52,712 nucleotides of DNA from NCBI GenBank assembly GCA_016931355.1, contig JAFGEX010000360.1, positions 1 through 52,712 on the forward strand. Reading direction: 5' to 3'. The notes below the pieces were generated by a model, which saw only the letters and a list, made by a program, of their open reading frames with translations, was not told where the DNA came from and did no database searches. Shown here in pieces: positions 8,483 through 50,197 of the stretch. A program made the translations under genes and the position numbers. The first letter of the stretch is position 1, and each line of letters opens with the position of its first letter. Source of the stretch: a bacterium (GTDB lineage: Bacteria; Zhuqueibacterota; QNDG01; JABMRT01).

Positions 8483-8516
8483 AAAAACCCCGGCTCCAAA
8501 GGCCGGGGTTTTTTTG
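8483..8516 (+). terminator. rho-independent terminator of cspA
   Basis: AAAAACCCCGGC-TCCAAAG-GCCGGGGTTTTTTT: a GC stem followed by a T-run. Confidence 0.85.
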
Positions 8517-8520
8517 TGGG

Positions 8521-8556
8521 GTCGAAGTTTGCCGGCAGTGGACTGCCGGCTCATCA
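8521..8556. repeat. degenerate copy of the ~42-bp palindromic element (copy A)
   Basis: TCGAAGTTTGCCGGCAGTGGACTGCCGGC. The inner 8-bp stem is perfect, but the right outer arm has been lost. Confidence 0.4.
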
Positions 8557-8599
8557 TACGAATCTGACAGCGAGCATGTACCCAATGCCTTTTTTGTTG

Positions 8600-8643
8600 C
8601 AGATCGAAGTTCCCCACCGCGAGCGGCCAAGGAGCTTCGATCC
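8600..8643. repeat. ~42-bp palindromic element (copy B)
   Basis: CAGATCGAAGTTCCCCACCGCGAGCGGCCAAGGAGCTTCGATCC shares the outer arms AGATCGAAG/CTTCGATC with the other copies. Confidence 0.65.
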
Positions 8644-8797
8644 CCTCCATAGGACTTTATCGTTTTAAATCTGTAAAAGCCATTGACTTGAAAAAAAGGT
8701 GGCCCCTTTTTTTCTATTTCAACTCAATCTCTGGTTGCTTTCATAACATGGTAACCGGAGGTGATCAAACGGTCCGGAAATGCCGCTTCCTCCAACT

Positions 8798-9889: not shown

Positions 9890-9979
9890 GGAGGTCCCTT
9901 GCGTGAATCTGTGTGTAAGCTCATTCCCCTGAGGCTCGCCGCGGTGGATGCGAGCGAATGGAAATGCCGTTTTCCTTAG

Positions 9980-10025
9980 AAATCAAAGATTCTCCGGCAA
10001 GCTCGTTGGCGGGGAGCTTCAATCC
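9980..10025. repeat. ~42-bp palindromic element (copy C)
   Basis: AAATCAAAGATTCTCCGGCAAGCTCGTTGGCGGGGAGCTTCAATCC. Confidence 0.6.
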
Positions 10026-10027
10026 TT

Positions 10028-16697: not shown

Positions 16698-18815
16698 TCA
16701 ATAGAATATGGCGGGTATGCGCTCCGGCTGCTGATCGAACGGCTTCAGGACGCCGGAGGCCAAGCCGTACAGCCTGTCATGCGTGCGCTTCATGGCGCCG
16801 GTCAGATCCGTGTAAGGCATATTGCATATATCCACCAGGCCGATGTTGTAATTTTCTCCGTCGAAACGGCCCAGTACAGGCTGGTCGTTCAGCTGGAAAT
16901 AATGAATGCCCACCAGTCCGGGCAATACCGCGCCCTGCTCCACGTAATACCTGTACGCTGCGCCCCTGTCCGCCTGGTCGGGCACGCCCCGTATGCCTGT
17001 TGCAGGCAGCCCCATGTCCAGGGCTCCGAAATGGAATTCCCCGATCATGACCGGCCTGCCCGTGCGCCGGACGATTTCCGCGATCACCTTTTCGTCCGGC
17101 TTTTCCGAGTACGAATTGATCGAAAACACATCGAAGTATTTGCCGCCCCTGTAGCAGAGTTCCGAGCTGATCCAGGCGTAGCGGATGCCGAGGTTCAGAT
17201 GATTCCGGTCCACTTTTCGCAGGGCCTCGACTGGATGCTTCAGGTATTCATCCACCAGAACAGCTGAAAATTCCCGGAGATCCGCCTCCGCGTTCGCCGA
17301 AAGCGAGGCCGCGTCCAGAACGGCCAGGGTTTCAAGCGATTCAAAGGAATCGAAACCGCGTTTCCAGGATTTGGAAAAGGCTTCTATATCGTCCCTGTAT
17401 TTTTTCCTGAGCCACCCGGCGAGCTCCTTTCGCGAGGCAGAAGGCTGCGTGGTAGCCAGCATTTCCGATGCGATGATGTTGTCCCCGAATGCCCAGAGAG
17501 GTTCATTGGCCAGGAAATATCCGATCAGATAAGGATCATCTTTCAATTCCTCCATCTGCCCGGAAAATTCCAGGGATGCGGTCCTGTATTCAGGTGAAAA
17601 CACGTCCGGGAAGTCGCGGTAGAGTTTGACCTGCGTGGAAGGGAAGCCACGCAGAGGCAGCACCCACGGCAGCGCAGCGCTGCCGGCGAATCCCCTGTCA
17701 GACCAGTTTCCGACCGTGTTGAATCCGTTTTGCCTGAGAAGCCCGGAAGTCATCTCCAGCCATTTGTTCTCCCAATCGTCCGAAAAGGCCCGGATCAGGT
17801 TTGCGGTCAGATAACTGAATCCTCCTCTGCGGCCTTCGAAGGCTGAAGCGAAACCGCCCTTTTCCTCAGGCAGCCATTCCAGAAGGTCCTCCATGCCCTG
17901 AACCGGCCCTTCGGCCGAAGGCCTGCACACATCCACACCTGCGCTGAAAAAGGCGCATCCGTCCGGGTCCACGAGCCACCAGCGCCTGCCGTCATGCTCC
18001 GTGCGGAAAAAGCCGGTGGATTCGAAACGTTTCAGCTTCCATCCGCCGTATTGGCTCCAGGAATCCGGGAAAGACGCGTCTTTCACCTGCTGATGCAGGC
18101 CCTGTATTTTCTCCACCAGCTCCTTTTCATTGCTGATTTTGCCGGGCCAGTCGCGCGCTTTCCATTGCCCGAATGCATCCACAACCGGTTTTTCATCAGG
18201 CAGAGGGGACGGCTTTTCGAGGGTCAGGCGGAGGCTGGAGATCCAGAGGTCTGTTTTAAATCCCGCTTCATTCGGTTCGAGCCCGACTGTCACGGCAGAG
18301 AGAGAATCCAGGGGAAGACGCCTGCCCGGCATGGTGCCCTTGAGCTGCCTTGCGAATCGCTGCATGAAAAAGGTCTGGCCGTCCAGGTATTCCAGGGGGA
18401 GGATGATGCGCGTCCGGAGTTCGGGCAGCACTCCGATCTTGGATGATATCCTGGGAGCGGCCCCTTCGTTTTTGCGGAAAAAATGAAAATACAGGATTGC
18501 GCTGTGCCGGTTTTCATGCCGGACGTCGGCGACCAGGTATTTGGCCTGATTCCAGGGGATTTCGTCCGGGCCGGGCAGATGCAGTTCCAAGCCGGGCTGC
18601 GGCTTCAGATGCAGGGCCTTGACGCCGGATGCGGGATCAACCGACCACACGGCGCATTCCGCCTGCTGTTCAGCCATTGCCTGCAGGTCCGCGTTCCAGA
18701 GCGTGTTGGAGGCGGGTTCAATATCCGTTTTCGAACAGGAGAGCAGCATGACGATGAAGCAAAAAAACACGGCTGCAATCCGATGCATTCGAGCTCGGGA
18801 TGGATGATGGTTCAT
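16698..18815 (-). CDS. predicted lipoprotein glycoside hydrolase, (beta/alpha)8 clan GH-A-like; family not assignable by eye
   Basis: LLSC lipobox. FLANEPLW (NEP acid/base-like) and MIGEFHF (nucleophile-like) motifs. AAGGAG RBS. Confidence 0.55.
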   Translation of the reverse strand: MNHHPSRARMHRIAAVFFCFIVMLLSCSKTDIEPASNTLWNADLQAMAEQQAECAVWSVDPASGVKALHLKPQPGLELHLPGPDEIPWNQAKYLVADVRHENRHSAILYFHFFRKNEGAAPRISSKIGVLPELRTRIILPLEYLDGQTFFMQRFARQLKGTMPGRRLPLDSLSAVTVGLEPNEAGFKTDLWISSLRLTLEKPSPLPDEKPVVDAFGQWKARDWPGKISNEKELVEKIQGLHQQVKDASFPDSWSQYGGWKLKRFESTGFFRTEHDGRRWWLVDPDGCAFFSAGVDVCRPSAEGPVQGMEDLLEWLPEEKGGFASAFEGRRGGFSYLTANLIRAFSDDWENKWLEMTSGLLRQNGFNTVGNWSDRGFAGSAALPWVLPLRGFPSTQVKLYRDFPDVFSPEYRTASLEFSGQMEELKDDPYLIGYFLANEPLWAFGDNIIASEMLATTQPSASRKELAGWLRKKYRDDIEAFSKSWKRGFDSFESLETLAVLDAASLSANAEADLREFSAVLVDEYLKHPVEALRKVDRNHLNLGIRYAWISSELCYRGGKYFDVFSINSYSEKPDEKVIAEIVRRTGRPVMIGEFHFGALDMGLPATGIRGVPDQADRGAAYRYYVEQGAVLPGLVGIHYFQLNDQPVLGRFDGENYNIGLVDICNMPYTDLTGAMKRTHDRLYGLASGVLKPFDQQPERIPAIFY

Positions 18816-18990
18816 GTCTGTACTCCTTCGGTTTCTTTATCGGAAAATGTCAAAACGGAAGGTCAATGTCAAGGGAAAACAGGATGGAGGATCCCGGAAG
18901 AATCCGGCGGCGAGCGAATTCACTGCGTATTGCCGCCTCCCCGTATTTTTCGCCCAGCTGCGCGGGGCCCAGAATGACGTTTCTATTGTT

Positions 18991-19059
18991 GTCCTGAGGG
19001 TTTTTGCCGCTGAAACATCAGGAAAGAATGGATTCCCGCCAAAAGATTGCGGGAATGAC
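18991..19059. repeat. two head-to-head hairpin repeats of the GTCAT(C/T)CC...GGA(A/T)TCC class
   Basis: GTCCTGAGGG...CAGGAAAGAATGG is followed by GGATTCCCGCCAAAAGATTGCGGGAATGAC (7-bp stem TTCCCGC/GCGGGAA). Confidence 0.5.
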
Positions 19060-19113
19060 GTCGGGTTTGTGAATAACCGCGACGCTTTTTCAAGGTGTCA
19101 ACGAAAATGGAAT

Positions 19114-19141
19114 GTAGAGAGGCACGGCCGTGCGTCTCTAC
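19114..19141 (-). terminator. 28-nt near-perfect palindrome downstream of the CE15 gene (possible terminator)
   Basis: GTAGAGAGGCACGGCCGTGCGTCTCTAC. On the minus strand it is followed by ATTCCATTTTCGTT. Its right half recurs 60 nt away, overlapping the CE15 stop. Confidence 0.35.
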
Positions 19142-19197
19142 ATCGTTTGGGGTGTTGGTAATCATCAAAGAATGCGCATACGCGCGGCCGTTCGTCT

Positions 19198-20523
19198 CTA
19201 CTTCATCCACCGGTCCGCAAAATCCATGTACCGTTCCCAGTCGAAAAGGGTCACGTCATGCGCTCCTGTACGGATGTGATACCCGATTAGCCCGTCCATC
19301 ACGGGCTTGTTCAAATCCGGCATTTGTTCCGCCCCAAGTCCGGAACCGGCCAGAAGCCTGTATACCGGGTCTGCAAAAAGGGCGGAGAGGAATTCGCCCT
19401 TCGGATCAGCCCACCAGTCCTCCTCTGCGCTCGCCACATACAGAGGACGCGGCGCGATCAGCGCAAGCAGGAAATGCTGATCAAAGGGCAGCAGGTCCTC
19501 CCGGTCGTTGTACTGTCTGAAATTGCCGCAGAACCAGTGCGGGAAACGGTCATTGATCAGCGCGACCGTTTCCCCGAATATCCGTTTGGACAGGGCTGCG
19601 CCGCCGCATCCTGAATTGTTGGAAACGACCATGGCGAAACGTTTGTCCCGGGCTCCTGCCCACAAGGCCGCCTTTCCCAGCCTGGAATGCCCGATAACCG
19701 CAATCCTCTTTTCATCCACATCCGGATCTTTTTTAAGAAGGTCCAGGATCCGGCTCAGGCCCCAGGCCCATGCGCCTATGGAACCCCATTGGTCCGGGTC
19801 CGGCGTACTTTGACCTTTCCTATAAAACAGGGGGTGCAATCCGTTCTGAAAACCGTCGTCATAATCCGGGTCCATGTCTCCATAGTACGCTGTCACAACG
19901 CCGTATCCCCTCTCCAGGATACGCTCTACGGGCCATCGCGAGGATTCGGAGCCGCGCGAGGCTTCAGTGGCCCGGTTCTCCGTTATTTCCAGGGTTGAGT
20001 CGTTCGGCATCCAGGACCTGCAAAGGAAAATGCCTGTATCCGGATGTACCGCATGATTCCCCTCGAAATTGAGCCCCAGGAAGCACGGCGTCTTTCCCGC
20101 ATGCGGATTTGGAAGATACATCAATACATCAATGGTGACCTGCTTTCCGCCGCGCCGGACATGAACCGCTGCCTGTTTCCTCACCGCCTTTCCGCCGAGC
20201 GCCTGCCTGTCCGTATCCCGAATTTCGAACTTGACGGAGGCTTTTCCCGGAGGGATTCGTCCGAACATTTGCGTTTCGAGAAGCGCCAATATCTCTTTGC
20301 TTCGCTTTTTATTCCAGGTCCGCGCATGCCTGACCGGTTCGTTGTTGGAAAGAACCAACGGATCAGGCAGCCCATAGGACGGGACTCTGCCCTCGTCCCG
20401 GTTGGCTGGAAGAGGCTGCGAGGCCAGGGAGGAGAATCCGCAGGCCAGAAACAGGATGCAGGCGGGCCGCATCGCCATTCGGAGACCGGATTTGATTTGC
20501 AGGTTTATGGAGAGCATATTCAT
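19198..20523 (-). CDS. CE15-family glucuronoyl esterase-like carbohydrate esterase, secreted or lipoprotein
   Basis: GHSRLGK serine motif characteristic of bacterial CE15. Signal peptide with FLAC. GGAGG lies 7 nt upstream of the ATG. Confidence 0.7.
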   Translation of the reverse strand: MNMLSINLQIKSGLRMAMRPACILFLACGFSSLASQPLPANRDEGRVPSYGLPDPLVLSNNEPVRHARTWNKKRSKEILALLETQMFGRIPPGKASVKFEIRDTDRQALGGKAVRKQAAVHVRRGGKQVTIDVLMYLPNPHAGKTPCFLGLNFEGNHAVHPDTGIFLCRSWMPNDSTLEITENRATEASRGSESSRWPVERILERGYGVVTAYYGDMDPDYDDGFQNGLHPLFYRKGQSTPDPDQWGSIGAWAWGLSRILDLLKKDPDVDEKRIAVIGHSRLGKAALWAGARDKRFAMVVSNNSGCGGAALSKRIFGETVALINDRFPHWFCGNFRQYNDREDLLPFDQHFLLALIAPRPLYVASAEEDWWADPKGEFLSALFADPVYRLLAGSGLGAEQMPDLNKPVMDGLIGYHIRTGAHDVTLFDWERYMDFADRWMK

Positions 20524-20632
20524 GAATCAACCTCCGCAAGTCGATGAAGGGCTGCAATGAACCTGACAGTGAGCACATTTCCCTCAGGTCTGCCCCTGGG
20601 CAAGAGAACGAATCCAAACGTCTTCATCCTTA

Positions 20633-20676
20633 CAGATCGAAGATTCCCCGGCAGTGAGCTGCCGGGGAGCTTCAAT
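20633..20676. repeat. ~42-bp palindromic element (copy D, best-preserved)
   Basis: CAGATCGAAGATTCCCCGGCAGTGAGCTGCCGGGGAGCTTCAAT. It abuts the 90-nt element. Confidence 0.75.
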
Positions 20677-20764
20677 CACCTCCTGGAGGACTTTTTCCTT
20701 CGAAATCCGAAAAGGTGTCGACTAAAAAGAATGGACGGATGGAGATAGTCCTCCCGGAGGTGAT
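20675..20764 (-). mobile_element. 90-nt MITE-like inverted-repeat element (copy E1)
   Basis: ATCACCTCCTGGAGGACT...AGTCCTCCCGGAGGTGAT. Its reverse complement aligns along its whole length with copy E3. Confidence 0.7.
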
Positions 20765-25466: not shown

Positions 25467-25561
25467 ATCACCTCCGGGAGGACTATCCGTTTCAGTTCTT
25501 TCAATTCAGTCAGCAGCCTAATATAACAGAACACTAAGGGAAAAGTCCTCCCGGAGGTGAT
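25467..25561 (+). mobile_element. 95-nt MITE-like inverted-repeat element (copy E2)
   Basis: ATCACCTCCGGGAGGACTATCC...AAAAGTCCTCCCGGAGGTGAT. The interior has diverged from E1/E3. It contains the queC stop codon. Confidence 0.7.
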
Positions 25562-26236: not shown

Positions 26237-26986
26237 CTATTTCGCCCTGTCCGAATCCGGCCAAAGTATTTTCTGAATCTGTAGCTGAAGCCGCACCGGA
26301 AGCCTGTCCCTCAGGATCCATGCCGCAAGATCCGCGGGATTGAAGCTCCCAGCCGCTTGCTGCGGGGAATCTTCGATCTGCAGGGAAGAAGGCTTTTGGA
26401 TCCGCTTGTTTTTTCCGCGGAAAGCAGCCGGGAATGCGCTCGCTCTCGGATCCAGCCTAACCTTTGCAGGAGAGAAAAGCACCTTGGCTCTCCCGGCCAG
26501 ACCGTATTTTTTCACGATTTCTCTTGCCCACAAATAATCCGCCTCTCCGCAAAGCACGAACTTGACCTCGTCGTTTGGCTGCAGCCTGCCCAAATTGTTC
26601 CAGTCCGTTTTTTCATGCTCACCGCTCCCCGGGCATTTGATGTCCATGATGCGGATGACCCCTGCAGGGAGAAGGCTGATGTCCCGGGTGCCGTTGGTCT
26701 CCACCAAAACGGCGAAGCCGCTGTCGAGCAGGGCCCCGGCCAGCTGCGGCGTTTCCTCCTGTTCCAGCGGTTCGCCTCCCGTGATTTCCACCAGCTGGAT
26801 TTCATGGATGGAAACAGCTTTCACGATGTCCCTGACGAGCCAGAACGTCCCCTCTTCGTATGCATAGGTTGTGTCGCAGTAAGCGCATCGCAGGTTACAG
26901 CCCGTGAGGCGGATGAAAACACAGGGAAGGCCCGCACAGGAGGATTCGCCCTGAATGGACATGAAGATTTCATTGACCTTGAGCAT
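26237..26986 (-). CDS. queE: 7-carboxy-7-deazaguanine synthase (radical SAM) carrying an in-frame repeat-derived insertion
   Basis: [10 protein letters not shown], a CNLRCAYCD cluster, and the C-terminal LAAWIL...[11 protein letters not shown] motif. Start MLKVNEIF lies 2 nt after the queD stop. Palindromic repeat copy F lies inside the ORF. Confidence 0.88.
26339..26380. repeat. ~42-bp palindromic element (copy F) inside the queE coding sequence
   Basis: ATTGAAGCTCCCAGCCGCTTGCTGCGGGGAATCTTCGATCTG. It is translated in frame as [15 protein letters not shown]. Confidence 0.75.
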
Positions 26987-29153: not shown

Positions 29154-30083
29154 TCAGCCTCCGAGCCTGCTTCTCTTGGACAGATAGCGGAAAAGAACAT
29201 TGCTGAAAGGCTGATCCGTGCTCACCGGCACGTAATCGATGCGATTCCTGAGGCATTCCCTCCTGTACCGGTCCATGAATGCCTGCATGAGATTCCGGTA
29301 CCCTTCCCGGACCTGCCAGGGCTCCGTCTGAACAGATGTCCCGGATTCCAGGTCGATGAACAGCGTGTCCCCCTTGAAGTCGAAGCGGATTTCCATGGGA
29401 TCGAGCACGTGGAAAACGATGACCTCATGTTTTTTATGGCGGAAATGTTTCAGCGCCCCGAGCAGGCGGTCCGGATCATCAAAAAGATCCGAAAACAGGA
29501 TGATGAGCCCGCGCCGCTTGATGCGCTCCGCCAGGCTGTGGCAGGTTTCCGACAGGTTCGTGTCGCCTGCGCCTGAGAGATTGTCCAATTCCTTTAGAAG
29601 AACGGACAGATAGCTCAAAACGGAGCGGGGGGGCAGGAATCTGCGTATCTGTGAATCGAAGGTCGCGAGCCCGACCGCGTCACGCTGCGTGAGCATCAGA
29701 TAGGACAGGGCTGCCGCAAGATACACGGCGTACTGCAGTTTCGTTGTTTTACCGGAGGCATATCCCATGGATCCGGACGCATCGACCAGCAGGTACGCCT
29801 TGAGATTGGTCTCTTCCTCGAAACGCTTGACATAGTACCGGTCCGAGCGGCCGTAAACCTTCCAGTCGATCAGCCGCGTGGGATCCCCGGGCATGTACGG
29901 CCTGTACTCGGAGAATTCCACGGAGAACCCGTGATAAGGGCTGCGATGCAGTCCTGTGATGAAGCCCTCGACCACGAGCCTGGCGATCAGGTCCAGCCTC
30001 GAAAGTCTGGATACGGTTTCGGGCTCCAGATATTTCCTGTAATCCCCGGCGAATGTCATGGCTTCAAAGTTGTCCGGATTCAT
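29154..30083 (-). CDS. DUF58 (vWA-like) protein, MoxR partner
   Basis: SVEFSEYRPYMPGDPTRLIDWK, RFEEETN and LVDASGSM motifs. The ATG at 30083 is preferred; the TTG at 30128 lies inside repeat E3. Confidence 0.85.
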   Translation of the reverse strand: MNPDNFEAMTFAGDYRKYLEPETVSRLSRLDLIARLVVEGFITGLHRSPYHGFSVEFSEYRPYMPGDPTRLIDWKVYGRSDRYYVKRFEEETNLKAYLLVDASGSMGYASGKTTKLQYAVYLAAALSYLMLTQRDAVGLATFDSQIRRFLPPRSVLSYLSVLLKELDNLSGAGDTNLSETCHSLAERIKRRGLIILFSDLFDDPDRLLGALKHFRHKKHEVIVFHVLDPMEIRFDFKGDTLFIDLESGTSVQTEPWQVREGYRNLMQAFMDRYRRECLRNRIDYVPVSTDQPFSNVLFRYLSKRSRLGG

Positions 30084-30171
30084 CACCTCCGGGAGGACTA
30101 TCCATTCCCGTCCATTTTCTTGAGTCAATACCTTTTACAGACTTCGAACAGGAAAGTCCTCCGGAGGTGAT
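30082..30171 (+). mobile_element. 90-nt MITE-like inverted-repeat element (copy E3)
   Basis: ATCACCTCCGGGAGGACTATCC...GAAAGTCCTCCGGAGGTGAT. Its left end overlaps the DUF58 start codon. Confidence 0.75.
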
Positions 30172-30238
30172 TCGAATTTTCATCAATGCTCACAATCCCG
30201 GATAAATGAAGGCCGGGCTGCCGGGTGGAAGAAAGATG

Positions 30239-31246
<1,008 letters not shown>

Positions 31247-32457: not shown

Positions 32458-32498
32458 CAGATTGAAGTTCCCCGCCTCTTGCTGCGGGGAGCTTCAAT
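32458..32498. repeat. ~42-bp palindromic element (copy E)
   Basis: CAGATTGAAGTTCCCCGCCTCTTGCTGCGGGGAGCTTCAAT. Confidence 0.75.
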
Positions 32499-32562
32499 TT
32501 CAATGTGCTTTTCAAGAGAGCCGCTGCATCACAAAAGGCTCTCAAGTCCAGGAGGAATCTCC

Positions 32563-39478: not shown

Positions 39479-39625
39479 AGATCCTTCGCTCCGTAAAGCA
39501 GTTCTCAGGAAGACATTCTATTGTCTTCCTGAGGATGCTAAGCGCCCGAAGGATCCGTGAAGGGGATGGTTGAAGTGTATGAGGGCTTGGATCCTTCGCT
39601 CCTGGAAAATGGAGCTCAGGATGAC
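39479..39625. repeat. three alternating-orientation copies of the (G)TCATCCTGAG...GCGAAGGATCC hairpin repeat
   Basis: Copies at 39479-39512 (-), 39525-39556 (+) and 39589-39625 (-). The first two form a perfect 12-bp hairpin, CTCAGGAAGACA/TGTCTTCCTGAG. Confidence 0.65.
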
Positions 39626-39720
39626 AATGAGCAGGGGATTTGATTAGAGCGCTTCCCGGGAACAATTCCCGGGCTGATTCGTCATAAGATTGAGATCGGA
39701 TTGCGTCCAAGCAAGGGCCG

Positions 39721-43832: not shown

Positions 43833-43865
43833 ATCACCTCCCGGAGGTGATTCCCTGGAGGTGAT
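43833..43865. repeat. collapsed terminal palindrome of the 90-nt element plus an extra GGAGGTGAT
   Basis: ATCACCTCCCGGAGGTGAT (43833-43851), then TCCCT and GGAGGTGAT (43857-43865). Confidence 0.65.
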
Positions 43866-46302: not shown

Positions 46303-46824
46303 ATGTTCAAACGGACCAAATCGGTCGCAATTCTGGCCGCCATGATCCTGATCCCGGCAACAAGCCCGCTCATGGCCCAGCTCAAACTGGGTTACGTCAA
46401 TTCGCAGGCTGTGCTGGCCGCATACCCGCCGGCTGTGGAGGCGCGCAAGAAGCTGGAGGCCGAATCCGCAAAATGGACGCAGGAACTGCAGAAAATGAGC
46501 GAGGATTTCCAGGCCGCGCAGCAGGAGCTTGAGCAGCAGAGCCTCCTTCTCTCCGATGCGAAGAAGCAGGAGAAGGTGAAGGCGCTCGAACAGATGGCCC
46601 AGAGGGCCCAGCAGTATCAGGTCCAGAAATGGGGCGAGAACGGCGAGATGGCCCGCCGGGAGCAGGAATTGCTTCAGCCCGTGATCGACAAGGTCAATGC
46701 CGTGATCAAGAAGGTCGGAGACGACAACAAGTTCGATTTCATCTTCGATGCGGTTGCCGGGAACCTCCTCTATGCCAAGGAGGCCCATGACATGACGCAG
46801 ACCATCATCGATGCGTTGAAATAA
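46303..46824 (+). CDS. skp: OmpH/Skp periplasmic chaperone
   Basis: Signal peptide, LGYVNSQAVL start of the mature protein, a long Lys/Glu/Gln coiled-coil, and a position after bamA. Confidence 0.88.
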   Translation: MFKRTKSVAILAAMILIPATSPLMAQLKLGYVNSQAVLAAYPPAVEARKKLEAESAKWTQELQKMSEDFQAAQQELEQQSLLLSDAKKQEKVKALEQMAQRAQQYQVQKWGENGEMARREQELLQPVIDKVNAVIKKVGDDNKFDFIFDAVAGNLLYAKEAHDMTQTIIDALK

Positions 46825-46914
46825 ATCCGGCCGTGTTGTCCGCCGGCAAACGCATCCCCTGAAGCGGGCCGCGGGGCCTGCGGGCGTACTGCAATGCCGT
46901 TTCCCCTGTGGAGG

Positions 46915-46954
46915 GAAGCTCCCCGGCAACGCGCTTCAGGGGGCCATCGATCTG
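46915..46954. repeat. ~42-bp palindromic element (copy H, degenerate)
   Basis: GAAGCTCCCCGGCAACGCGCTTCAGGGGGCCATCGATCTG. Confidence 0.5.
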
Positions 46955-47020
46955 CAGGGCGTTGGAGCATCCCCGGAGGGCGGCCTTCGGGGCGCGTTTA
47001 TTTTTGCTCGGGAGGATCCC

Positions 47021-47578
47021 GTGATTTTCATGAAAAAGAAATCCTGCGCAGGTTGTGTCGCAGCGGTCGTCCTCATCCATTCCTGGATATTCGGCCAATC
47101 CAGGATCGGTTTCGTGGACTCCCAGAAAATCCTGACCGGCTACGAAGGCGCCCAGGACGCGATGAAGGAAATCGACACGGAGAACAACAACTGGGGCCAG
47201 GAACTTCAGAAGATGAACGACCATTACAACACCATGAAGGAGGAGATCGAGCAGCAGAGCCTGCTTCTCTCCGAAGCCAAGCGCAAGGAGAAGGCCCAGG
47301 AGCTTGAAAACCTGGCAAAAGAGATCCAGCAGTACAGGGATAAGAAATGGGGGGAAGGCGGGGACTATTTCAGGAAGCGTGAGGAGGCCTTGAGGCCCAT
47401 CTTTGACAAGATCAACCAGGCTGTCGCAACGGTCGCGGACGACAACAAGATCGACATCATCTTCGATTCCGTGAACGGAAACATCCTGTACGCGCTGCCC
47501 AAATACGACATGACGGAAGACGTGCTCGAGGAATTGACCAGCATGGACGCAGACTCCAAGAAAGCGCAGAAACCTTAA
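47021..47578 (+). CDS. skp: second OmpH/Skp paralogue
   Basis: IGFVDSQKIL followed by a coiled-coil. Same architecture as the upstream skp and the same AGGAGGATCCC RBS context. GTG at 47021, or alternatively ATG at 47030. Confidence 0.85.
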   Translation: MIFMKKKSCAGCVAAVVLIHSWIFGQSRIGFVDSQKILTGYEGAQDAMKEIDTENNNWGQELQKMNDHYNTMKEEIEQQSLLLSEAKRKEKAQELENLAKEIQQYRDKKWGEGGDYFRKREEALRPIFDKINQAVATVADDNKIDIIFDSVNGNILYALPKYDMTEDVLEELTSMDADSKKAQKP

Positions 47579-47588
47579 AGCCCGGCGG

Positions 47589-48635
47589 ATGAAACTGACC
47601 CTGGGTGAAATATGCCGCCTGGCCGGCGGCGATCTGGAGGGCGATCCGGACCTGCCCATCAGCGGAGTCGGCAAGATCGAGGAGGCGCGCGAAGGCGAGC
47701 TGACCTTCATCGCCAATCCGAAGTACCTGAAATATCTCGGCCGGACAAAAGCATCGGCTGTGATCGTGCCCAGGGATGCGCCCCCTGCGCCTTCCCATTC
47801 CCTCATCCGCAGCGACAATCCCTATTTCGTTTTCATGAAGGCGCTGATTCTTTTCAATCCGCCGGAGGCGCTTTACGGCAGGGGGATTCACCCGGCCGCA
47901 ATCGTGGGCCAGAATGCGAAGCTGGGGAAGGATCTATCCATCGGGCCCCATGCGGTCATCGGCGACGGATGCAGCATCGGGGACGGGACCGTGCTGGGTG
48001 CAGGCGTTTTCATCGGAAACGGCTCAAGCGTGGGCCGGGAATGCATCCTGCACCCGCATGTCAGCATCCGGGAGAAGGTGATCATCGGGGACAGGGTCAT
48101 CATACACAACGGAGCCGTGATCGGCAGCGACGGATTCGGTTTTGTGCCGGAAGAGGGCGTGTATCACAAGATCCCGCAGGTGGGGACTGTGGTCATAGAG
48201 GATGACGTGGAAATCGGCGCCAATGTGACGATTGACCGGGCCACCCTGGGGGAAACCCGAATCAAAAAAGGCGCAAAGCTGGACAATCTGATTCAGGTCG
48301 CCCATAACTGCAGCGTGGGGGAACACACGGTCATCGCGGCCCAGACCGGCATGGCGGGCAGCACCACGATCGGGAATCATGTGCGAATCGCCGGGCAGGC
48401 CGGATTCGCCGGGCACATGTCCGTGGGCGACGGAGCGGTGGTCGCGGCCCAGGCCGGCGTGGTCAAGGATGTGCCACCCGGAGAAATGGTTTCCGGTTAC
48501 CCGGCAAGGCCTCACCGAGAGGAACTTCGCAGGGAGGCTGCGGGCGCCAGGATGCCGGAAATGCTCAGGGAGATTCGCGCCTTAAAAAAGAGACTGGACG
48601 AACTGGAAGAGAGGATGAGGAAAAGCGGATGCTGA
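47589..48635 (+). CDS. lpxD: UDP-3-O-acylglucosamine N-acyltransferase
   Basis: N-terminal uridine-binding-type domain (LTFIANPKYL) followed by hexapeptide repeats and a C-terminal helix. Confidence 0.92.
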   Translation: MKLTLGEICRLAGGDLEGDPDLPISGVGKIEEAREGELTFIANPKYLKYLGRTKASAVIVPRDAPPAPSHSLIRSDNPYFVFMKALILFNPPEALYGRGIHPAAIVGQNAKLGKDLSIGPHAVIGDGCSIGDGTVLGAGVFIGNGSSVGRECILHPHVSIREKVIIGDRVIIHNGAVIGSDGFGFVPEEGVYHKIPQVGTVVIEDDVEIGANVTIDRATLGETRIKKGAKLDNLIQVAHNCSVGEHTVIAAQTGMAGSTTIGNHVRIAGQAGFAGHMSVGDGAVVAAQAGVVKDVPPGEMVSGYPARPHREELRREAAGARMPEMLREIRALKKRLDELEERMRKSGC

Positions 48636-50026
48636 AAAACCAGAGGACGATCGGGAAAACCGTGTCTATGTCCGGACGGGGCCTGCATACAGGGACCAAG
48701 ACCACGCTTCGATTCAAGCCTGCGGAGCCCAACACGGGCATCCGGTTCAGGCGCACGGATGTGGAGAATTGCCCGGAGATCCCGGCCGACATCGAGCATG
48801 TGGTGGATAATTTCCGCGACACGACCATCGGAAAGGGGAGCATCCACATCCGCCAGGTCGAGCATGTTCTGGCAGCGGTTTATGGCATGGAAATAGACAA
48901 TATCCTGGTCGAAGTGGACTCGAACGAGCCTCCGGTGGGCGACGGCAGCGCCATGCCTTTTGTCGAGATTCTGCAGAAGGCCGGGATCGTGGAACAGAAC
49001 TCGCCCAGGGATTATCTGGAAATCCAGGAGACGATCACGTATTCGGATCCTTCCAGGGGAGTCGATATGGTGGTTTTCCCCTCGGACGAATTCCGCATCA
49101 CCTTCATGGTGGACTACAAAAATCCGGCCCTGGGCACCCAGTACACGTCCATGTACTCCCTTCACGACGAATTCGTCAAGGAATTCGCCGGCGCCCGGAC
49201 GTTCTGCTTTTTGCACGAGGTGGAAGAGCTTCACAACCAGGGCCTGATTCAGGGCGGGAACCTGGAAAATGCGGTTGTCATCGTGGACAGGCAGCTTTCG
49301 GACGGGGAGCTGAAGACCCTGGCCGACAAATTCGGCCTGAAGGATGCGGTGATGCTCGGGAGCAACGGCATTCTGGGCGGCAAGACCCTGCGTATGTACA
49401 ATGAGCCGGTGCGGCACAAGACCCTGGACCTCATCGGCGACCTGGCGCTTCTCGGCGTGCCGCTCAAGGCGCATGTGCTGGCAGCCAGGTCCGGCCACGC
49501 AGCCCATGTGGAGCTCGTGAAGAAAATACGCCAGGTTTACAAGAAGAAACAGCTCACAACCAAGTTCCAGAAAAAACCGGCCCATCAGGGCGTCCTGCTC
49601 GACATCCGGGCCATTGAAAAGATACTCCCGCACCGGTACCCCTTCCTTCTGGTGGACAAGATCATCGATCTGGTGCCCAAGGCAAAGGTGGTCGGGATCA
49701 AGAACGTCACGTACAACGAGCCCTATTTCCCCGGGCATTTCCCGGGCCATCCGGTCATGCCGGGCGTTTTGATCCTGGAGGCCATGGCCCAGACCGGGGC
49801 CGTGCTCATGCTCGACGCCATAGAGAACAACGAGGAAAAGGTCGCGTATTTCATGAGTATAGACGGGGTCAAGTTCAGAAAGCCCGTTTTGCCCGGCGAC
49901 CAGATCCAGATCGAGGTGGACATGGTCCGGTTCAGGATGGGATCATGCAAGATGGCTGCGAAGGCGTTCGTTTCAGGCGAGCTGGTCTGCGAAGCGGAGC
50001 TCATGGCAGCGATTGTGGACCGGTAG
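48629..50026 (+). CDS. lpxC-fabZ: bifunctional UDP-3-O-acyl-GlcNAc deacetylase / 3-hydroxyacyl-ACP dehydratase
   Basis: LpxC motifs: GRGLHTG, VEHVLAA, HKTLDLIGDLAL. FabZ motifs: LPHRYPFLLVD, GHFPGHPVMPGVLILEAMAQ. Overlaps lpxD by 7 nt. Confidence 0.93.
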   Translation: MLKNQRTIGKTVSMSGRGLHTGTKTTLRFKPAEPNTGIRFRRTDVENCPEIPADIEHVVDNFRDTTIGKGSIHIRQVEHVLAAVYGMEIDNILVEVDSNEPPVGDGSAMPFVEILQKAGIVEQNSPRDYLEIQETITYSDPSRGVDMVVFPSDEFRITFMVDYKNPALGTQYTSMYSLHDEFVKEFAGARTFCFLHEVEELHNQGLIQGGNLENAVVIVDRQLSDGELKTLADKFGLKDAVMLGSNGILGGKTLRMYNEPVRHKTLDLIGDLALLGVPLKAHVLAARSGHAAHVELVKKIRQVYKKKQLTTKFQKKPAHQGVLLDIRAIEKILPHRYPFLLVDKIIDLVPKAKVVGIKNVTYNEPYFPGHFPGHPVMPGVLILEAMAQTGAVLMLDAIENNEEKVAYFMSIDGVKFRKPVLPGDQIQIEVDMVRFRMGSCKMAAKAFVSGELVCEAELMAAIVDR

Positions 50027-50066: not shown

Positions 50067-50197
50067 GTCAGCCTGAGCCCAGTCCTTGCTGTGTGAAGAG
50101 CAGACTGCCGCAAGCGGAGCGGATGGTTTTTTCCGCGGCCGATGAAAGCGCTCCTGTCATTGTCATCCTGAGCCCCGTCTTTCCGGGGCGAAGGATA
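50067..50197. repeat. two same-orientation copies of the GTCA(T/G)CCTGAGC... hairpin repeat in the lpxC/fabZ-lpxA spacer
   Basis: GTCAGCCTGAGCCCAGTCCTTGCTGTGTGAAGAGC (50067-50101) and GTCATCCTGAGCCCCGTCTTTCCGGGGCGAAGGATAC (50162-50197). Confidence 0.6.

Follow-up and report, generated by a model that had tools for sequence, protein, structure and literature searches.

We describe here a short repeated element found in a 52,712-nt stretch of bacterial DNA that is a complete contig (JAFGEX010000360.1, positions 1 to 52,712; the whole stretch is referred to as the window). [quoted passage not shown] It is probably a lineage-specific, non-autonomous, non-coding palindromic repeat of the kind of the REPINs (hairpin-forming doublets of repetitive extragenic palindromic, REP, sequences) or of the small MITEs. 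The repeat is an undescribed example of this familiar REP/MITE kind: Rfam gave no match at the gathering score, with relaxed thresholds returning only generic hairpin (miRNA-precursor) models, and no repeat family with Shine-Dalgarno (SD)/anti-SD termini was found in full-text literature searches. This agrees with the original prediction, made from the letters alone, in which the element was not recognised as belonging to any described family.

Three intact copies (E ~1e-25), all with near-perfect 18-nt TIRs, were found both by a repeat finder and by a hidden Markov model (HMM) built from the copies. Copy A (20675..20764, plus strand, 90 nt, HMM E=2e-25) has the intact termini ATCACCTCCTGGAGGACT and AGTCCTCCCGGAGGTGAT and is located between the stop of a GH3 glycosidase gene (20796) and the start of a glucuronyl-esterase-like gene (20523), with a different small repeat, designated F2, adjoining its left end. 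Copy B (25467..25561, minus strand, 95 nt) occupies the spacer between queC and queF and has perfect termini around a diverged interior (35/59 and 38/64 positions identical). Copy C (30082..30171, minus strand, 90 nt, HMM E=5.5e-26), the element to which the original prediction was attached, is flanked by the stop of a MoxR gene (30239) and the start of a DUF58 gene (30059). Copy A is inverted relative to C, and the similarity between them spans the interior (55 nt, 82%). The coordinates and sequences of these three copies, the alignment of the reverse complement of A with C and the divergent interior of B were all as originally described, and so was a collapsed version reduced to the termini. 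The latter, element E (43833..43851, with no strand assigned), is a bare perfect 19-bp palindrome, ATCACCTCCCGGAGGTGAT, formed by two outer half-termini without interior and located after the stop of a TamB-like gene (43827) and before the upstream region of bamA; 5 nt past it there is an extra GGAGGTGAT half-site (43857..43865, plus strand), also part of the early description. A further half-terminus reported at 8755-8765 does exist, but it is not isolated, being the right end of a degenerate copy D (8640..8765, plus strand, 126 nt, HMM E=1.4e-5, recovered by the repeat finder too). Copy D comprises the left terminus ATCCCCTCCATAGGACT with family-type interior up to 8699, a 55-nt remnant of an insertion sequence (IS)-like element (8700-8754) and the right half-terminus CCGGAGGTGAT; the convergent csp and PFK (pfk) genes flank it and F2 adjoins its left end.

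The terminus is strongly over-represented. With up to 3 mismatches, the 18-nt sequence ATCACCTCCNGGAGGACT has 7 matches in the window versus 0.11 expected from shuffled sequences, and the outermost 9 nt, GGAGGTGAT, have 10 versus 0.68 expected, all 10 of them inside repeats of this family. The window holds three intact copies, a degenerate one and the bare palindrome in 52.7 kb, and five further sites were found in about 75 kb of relatives, a density of about one copy per 10-15 kb of sampled DNA. Every copy lies in a spacer or at a gene end, as had been proposed, and the neighbouring genes are unrelated from site to site (queuosine synthesis, MoxR/DUF58, glycosidases, PFK, bamA). Seven of the nine copies (all but both copies of site D), together with palindrome E, are located between genes of the same strand. 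That no copy has coding capacity is true in general but not of copy B, in which the QueC gene has its final 9 codons and its stop (25561-25534); this extension of QueC into the element follows a deletion of about 60 nt relative to the relatives.

A copy is built from two units of an 18-nt imperfect palindrome (AGTCCTCC-N-GGAGGTGAT), placed in inverted orientation around a variable interior of 40-60 nt. CCTCC-N-GGAGG is present in every terminus and the termini of a copy pair with each other over 18 bp, which is the inverted palindrome doublet of REPINs. The interior is asymmetric, the family consensus being ...GGAGGACTTTTCC-TTCGAAATC-GTAAAAGG at one end and ...GGATAGTCCTCCCGGAGGTGAT at the other. 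The central base of the termini follows inverted and not direct symmetry (G...C in copy B and in the copy of a relative, contig L118), and the termini are therefore true terminal inverted repeats; the possibility that they represent an 11-bp palindromic target duplicated around an inserted core was ruled out on the same grounds. Strong RNA hairpins are predicted on both strands, with minimum free energies (MFE) of -35 to -50 kcal/mol, z scores of -4.4 to -8.7 and stems of at least 18 bp (A, MFE -42.4 kcal/mol, z -5.1; B, -49.6, z -8.0; C, -42.6, z -5.4). Between most copies the termini are identical at 15-18 of 18 positions and the interiors at 54-72%, and orthologous interiors (63% between A and its counterpart in contig L124, 54% between B and that of L118) are not closer than paralogous ones (71% between A and C). 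The fold of the alignment predicts the terminal stem, with 21 pairs that are almost all invariant or broken and an unfavourable covariation term (+2.02); no compensatory stem changes appear in the alignment of the copies, the decayed ones just losing pairs. The original prediction had considered that conserved positions together with compensatory covariation would point to a dedicated structured RNA. Positions shared with relatives were found for sites A, B and D, as described below, but covariation was not, and both orientations to transcription occur among the copies, unlike what is expected of a dedicated cis-regulatory hairpin. The palindromic ends are thus under constraint or homogenisation, with no positive sign of a selected RNA structure. 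Two other roles were rejected. An intrinsic terminator was ruled out because in neither orientation is there a U-tract after the hairpin, and a promoter in the interior because the conserved TTGACT found there has no suitably spaced -10 and the promoter scan was negative in every copy. Searches of the window gave neither tRNA nor rRNA genes.

We have compared the window with its close relatives. These are metagenome contigs, located through cluster and contig look-ups, which span the greater part of the window at 81-87% nucleotide identity. At site A a relative (L124, 80-163) has a copy directly against the start of the esterase gene, with the far terminus decayed. At site B the copy of L118 (5835-5910) has the same orientation as in the window, measures 76 nt with one mismatch per terminus and a shorter interior, and is followed by F2. 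At site D a full 92-nt copy is found (L132, 13629-13720), inverted with respect to the F2 and pfk flanks when compared with the window (element score 71 versus 14, the flanks matching in the opposite sense). Site C has no copy in the relatives, where a gene for a 237-aa His-rich membrane protein is found instead (window 30068-30246 versus L115 9087-9992), and at site E a GTAG-type REP hairpin replaces the palindrome. Two copies, R1 and R2 (L124, 3441-3515 and 5160-5237), are present in relatives only, one on each side of an amine-oxidase gene with no counterpart in the window; the whole GntR/DUF1648/amine-oxidase block of the relatives is missing from the window (18815-19198 versus L124 1495-5285). 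The presence/absence polymorphism that the original prediction had recommended looking for is thus found, with C exclusive to the window, R1 and R2 exclusive to the relatives and D flipped. At every polymorphic site the surrounding sequence differs too, indicating that these are not precise insertions. On the other hand, for three of the four copies of the window (A, B and D) a genome about 15% divergent has a copy at the corresponding site, the extragenic persistence typical of REPINs, which indicates that the family is old and site-stable rather than recently mobile.

Outside these regions the family was not detected. There is no copy in the relatives in about 12 kb past the point where the window ends on the right, nor in the same organism in 2.3 kb past its left end, and about 21 kb from each of two more distant relatives (DUF58 67-69% identical, GC content 39-45%) contained no member of the family. 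From these comparisons the family appears to be restricted to a narrow lineage, within which copies are both kept and turned over. A scan of genome contigs with the 17-18-nt terminus gave at least 112 single matches in unrelated taxa; none of the matches listed had a second terminus or similarity to the window, and they were taken as chance. Scans of the metagenome collection with paired termini gave no match, but L118, a JGI contig, matches the second pattern and is evidently outside that collection, and these empty scans consequently say little on distribution. Independent assemblies of the sister species also break, time and again, precisely at the repeat-bearing spacers (L113-115 and L123 after queC, L124-129 before the esterase gene, L133-135 after pfk). 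These repeated contig breaks suggest that the spacers contain multi-copy repeats or differ in allele between strains.

In the relatives the termini are also targets of an IS-like element. Its sequence cuts the right terminus between AGTCCTCCCG and CTATGATG, at the same base at two loci, the junction reading AGTCCTCCCG followed by CTATGATGAAAGTC... both at site B (L113-115, L121, L123) and at site D (L133-135). The IS-like sequence is multi-copy (L113 14588-14720, L133 13712-13842, L125 1-128 and the remnant inside copy D of the window); it is identical at 130/130 nt between the loci of sites B and D, and it is within this sequence that the contigs stop. The complementary junction, ...CATAACATAGTAA (...TAGTAA) joined to CCGGAGGTGAT, could be identified in L125, upstream of the esterase gene, and a 55-nt remnant of it is inside copy D of the window. 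At several loci in the relatives the insertion has the same fixed base and the same orientation. Taken together, the two junctions imply a 3-bp CCG duplication, and the palindrome is evidently recognised as DNA by at least one recombinase. Assigning the IS-like element to the IS110 type is a guess; if it is correct, a recombinase of the IS110/IS1111 type whose guide loop complements CCTCCCGGAGG would account for the fixed insertion point. No Rfam match to a bridge-RNA-like structure was obtained in the IS-like ends at relaxed thresholds. This element was ruled out as the parent of the family, its ends (CTATGATGAAAGTCAAC...) being unrelated to the TIRs. IS elements that target REP sequences are known (PMC1525189, PMC12288879) and the behaviour described here parallels them.

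F2 is found fused to the outer GGAGGTGAT at sites A (in the window), B (in a relative) and D (in both). The copy at site A (20543..20680, minus strand, E=9e-37), which is separate from the TIR element, has the junction GGAGGTGAT followed by TGAAGCTCCCC. The presence of both F2 and IS-like junctions at the termini indicates that these intergenic spots are mosaics of small repeats, as in bacterial interspersed mosaic elements (BIMEs). Other F2 copies are located at 8508-8645 (minus), 9896-10027 (minus) and 26335-26466 (plus) of the window, with partial ones at 32458-32502 and 46840-46959, and at 30-111 of L136. The repeat measures about 125 nt, contains two G+C hairpins, has GAT before it in nearly all cases and follows the consensus (GAT)TGAAGCTCCCCGCC-loop-GGCGGGGAATCTTCGATCTGyAGGGAA...CCCCGCGG.AAGCCGCGGGGAATGCGCTCGCT.TCAGATTCA; it often terminates just upstream of a gene start (pfk, esterase and, in relatives, queF) and matches no Rfam family. 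One copy is inside a coding sequence, where 26342-26452 form an in-frame insertion of 111 nt (37 codons) within queE (26237-26986, minus strand). The QueE of close relatives (212 aa) is without this insertion, and the arrangement resembles the Rickettsia palindromic elements. GTAG-headed REP-like hairpins such as GTAGAGACGCACGGCCGTGCCTCTCTAC and GTAGGGGCGAACGGCCGTTCGCCCC (window 19202-19174 and 19142-19115, both minus; L118 5803-5828; L115 at about 1830-1860) are a third class of repeat in the same intergenic regions.

If the family does belong with the REPINs or the small MITEs, the palindromes at its termini would serve as DNA recognition sites for recombinases or transposases acting in trans. 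When an operon is transcribed, the arms of a copy would pair into a hairpin of 18-25 bp (about -40 to -50 kcal/mol), which may act between cistrons as a barrier to 3'-exonucleases or as a substrate of RNase III, as REP or Correia hairpins do. The hairpin would mask the SD-like arm and make the element normally silent in translation. The match to the 16S rRNA tail would then be largely a consequence of the CCTCC/GGAGG palindrome, although decay of the masking arm could occasionally generate a real ribosome-binding site (RBS), as apparently has happened upstream of the esterase gene in a relative. Several points weigh against this interpretation. No target-site duplication is visible in the copies read and no precise empty site was found in the relatives; the copies are not near-identical and bear no mark of recent copying. 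The sample is small, nine copies at six sites, with about 53 kb covered in this genome and about 75 kb in relatives. A single terminus is unable to fold alone (it would have a 1-nt loop), and the termini contain no GTAG, that is, they lack the GTAG/CTAC foot of classical REPs. The complement to the anti-SD, 9 of 9 nt, exceeds the length that a GGAGG palindrome alone needs and, finally, a host function could explain equally well why the termini are conserved in place.

GGAGGTGAT is the exact complement of the conserved 3' tail of 16S rRNA, as the original prediction pointed out, and we infer that the host has a 16S tail with CCUCC from the presence of GGAGG 4-10 nt before about 10 convincing starts (for example those of the GH3, histidine kinase and esterase genes). 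The element might be a mobile translational module, selected for carrying a maximal SD and a mimic of the 16S tail on one transcript, masked by the hairpin until a ribosome or nuclease opens it, that couples or insulates cistrons and supplies RBSs. The preference for spacers between same-strand genes would fit such a module, and so would the QueC frame that crosses the 5' arm of copy B and stops inside the element. The one suggestive case is in L124, where the annotated GTG of the esterase follows a terminus at 6 nt and the anti-SD (masking) arm is decayed. In the window, the RBS of the esterase (20526..20535, minus strand), 7 nt before the ATG at 20523, is GGAGGTTGAT, a near-copy of the terminal motif. 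GGAGGTTGAT and the terminus of copy A bracket the F2 insertion as a direct repeat of 9-10 nt, and the relatives have the TIR terminus itself at the place of this RBS. However, a functional SD at these ends did not stand up in the window, where no long ORF starts 5-10 nt downstream of any of the 10 GGAGGTGAT. The annotated start of DUF58 (301 aa, homologues 299-303 aa) is 26 nt from the terminus of copy C and the queF start about 80 nt from the nearest terminus of copy B. The half-site at 43857-43865 is 69 nt from the bamA ATG (43939), which is served by its own GAGGT site, and is not the bamA RBS. In addition, orientations to transcription are mixed (about 4 versus 3), one copy lies between convergent genes and another upstream of a promoter, and the stem shows the loss of pairs already mentioned instead of compensation. 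In the predicted fold the SD is buried in the 18-bp G+C-rich stem, which would not open spontaneously. We consider a dedicated translational module unlikely; a general SD function is not supported, while occasional co-option as RBS is plausible.

A classical MITE moved by cut and paste is unlikely as well. In this case the element would be an internally deleted IS, with a DDE-type transposase that recognises the 18-bp ends and leaves a short duplication such as AT or TC. The 18-bp TIRs, the small size, the lack of ORFs, the several dispersed copies and the existence of lineage-specific ones are what such an element should show, and the outermost AT...AT could even be a palindromic 2-bp duplication (it is self-complementary, and hence ambiguous), with TC at both ends in three copies. 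But the flanking dinucleotides are inconsistent among copies (CA/AT for A, TT/GG for B, TC/CA for R2). No parent IS was seen within the contig and the flanks of the relatives, and the adjacent IS-like element, with its unrelated ends, does not provide one. Copies at orthologous sites are old, with interiors 54-72% alike, unlike the product of a recent burst. The MITE/Correia-like transposition initially proposed is thus left with neither a target-site duplication nor a clean empty site.

It is quite unlikely that the element is a masked mobile RBS, i.e. a hairpin of SD and 16S mimic that spreads through operon spacers, is repeatedly domesticated and insulates cistrons or attracts RNase III, the decay of one arm exposing the RBS (as seemingly at the esterase of the sister species) and the palindrome being the landing site of a site-specific IS, possibly of IS110 type. 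Very unlikely is that the termini are palindromic protein-binding sites kept by the host as operators or as nucleoid-associated or structural sites, with the interior as mere spacer: near-palindromic double-stranded termini kept in place while interiors drift, the bare palindrome at 43833-43851 and the evident recognition of the palindrome by at least one recombinase would fit, but the neighbouring genes share nothing, most copies are downstream of or between cistrons with no promoter-like sites in the elements, and the palindrome of site E is swapped for an unrelated REP hairpin in the relatives.

Among the known repeats, the closest to this family are the REPINs and REP-BIMEs of Proteobacteria, inverted palindrome doublets that with their spacer form one hairpin and that are intergenic and accompanied by singlet remnants (PMC3116915, PMC3337134, PMC3333891, PMC2817692). 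The doublet, the single long hairpin, the intergenic location and the singlet remnants are also found here, as are vertical persistence at the same sites in related genomes, the mosaic with other small repeats and the use as insertion target by IS elements (PMC1525189). The differences are the absence of a GTAG/CTAC head, single units that cannot fold (1-nt loop), a palindrome core that is an SD/anti-SD pair and a host that is not a proteobacterium but an uncultured diderm similar to the FCB group (Fibrobacteres, Chlorobi and Bacteroidetes). The family cannot be filed as a classical GTAG REP. Correia elements (Correia repeat enclosed elements, CREE), exclusive to Neisseria, have 26-bp TIRs, a TA duplication, an integration host factor (IHF) site and outward promoters, and their hairpins are co-transcribed, are substrates of RNase III and can alter the expression of neighbouring genes (PMC2649163, PMC10969869, PMC2229807). 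Like them and other bacterial MITEs, our element has about 100 nt of non-coding sequence with TIRs and lies between or beside genes in both orientations. The sequence and length of its TIRs are different, there is no TA duplication and no outward promoter, the host lineage is another one, and the IHF-type WATCAANNNNTTR is not common to the copies in the family alignment. As it lacks the TIR sequence by which Correia elements are defined, and also their TA duplication and IHF site, it cannot be filed as one of them.

Repeats that carry translation signals have also been described. The Neisseria REP2 and the inverted-repeat (IR) sequences of Borrelia carry promoter, RBS and ATG (reviewed in PMC3184786). 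REP2 resembles our family in being a dispersed repeat that holds an RBS sequence and may land directly upstream of genes (here the esterase of L124), but it is without TIRs, is always upstream of ORFs in one orientation and gives the start codon (PMC3184786). In our family, in contrast, both ends carry the RBS-like sequence, which is masked and in most cases not next to a start. One likeness to the mycobacterial interspersed repetitive units (MIRUs) is that copy B provides the stop codon of QueC. MIRUs, reportedly described by Supply et al. in 1997, are short repeats of intra-operon spacers that may overlap the stop or start codons of the flanking genes; they are direct, tandemly variable and of one orientation, with small coupled ORFs, and not inverted-repeat hairpins.

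The host is an uncultured diderm, as shown by the window's genes for BamA, for a TamB-like protein and for an LpxC-FabZ fusion. The fusion (465 aa, 48629-50026) is typical of FCB-group bacteria and helps to place the host; the DUF58 protein shares only 63-72% identity with proteins that bear the labels "bacterium", KSB1 or Calditrichaeota. Other repeated sequences of the window are a short hairpin repeat GTCATTCCCGC...GCGGGAATCC (19059-19031, minus strand), an 85%-complementary pair of the type GTCATCCTGAGC...GCGAAGGAT (39591-39630 and 50157-50196) and a 176-nt direct repeat with 70% identity and 718-nt spacing (46471-46646 and 47189-47364) that corresponds to adjacent OmpH/Skp paralogues downstream of bamA.

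Small palindromic repeats are well known from work on Proteobacteria, Neisseria and streptococci, whereas uncultured lineages of the FCB group have hardly been studied in this respect. The comparison of metagenome contigs shows, in a compact example, persistence at sites, turnover, inversion, nesting with F2 and precise targeting by an IS-like element. At present the import of the repeat is mainly for annotation, since it alters the C-terminus of QueC, breaks the assemblies of the relatives and might mislead gene callers driven by RBSs. The SD/anti-SD ends and the role as IS landing site are the features that deserve follow-up, and if it is true that these ends affect translation, the family would offer a natural system in which mobile DNA makes or masks ribosome-binding sites.

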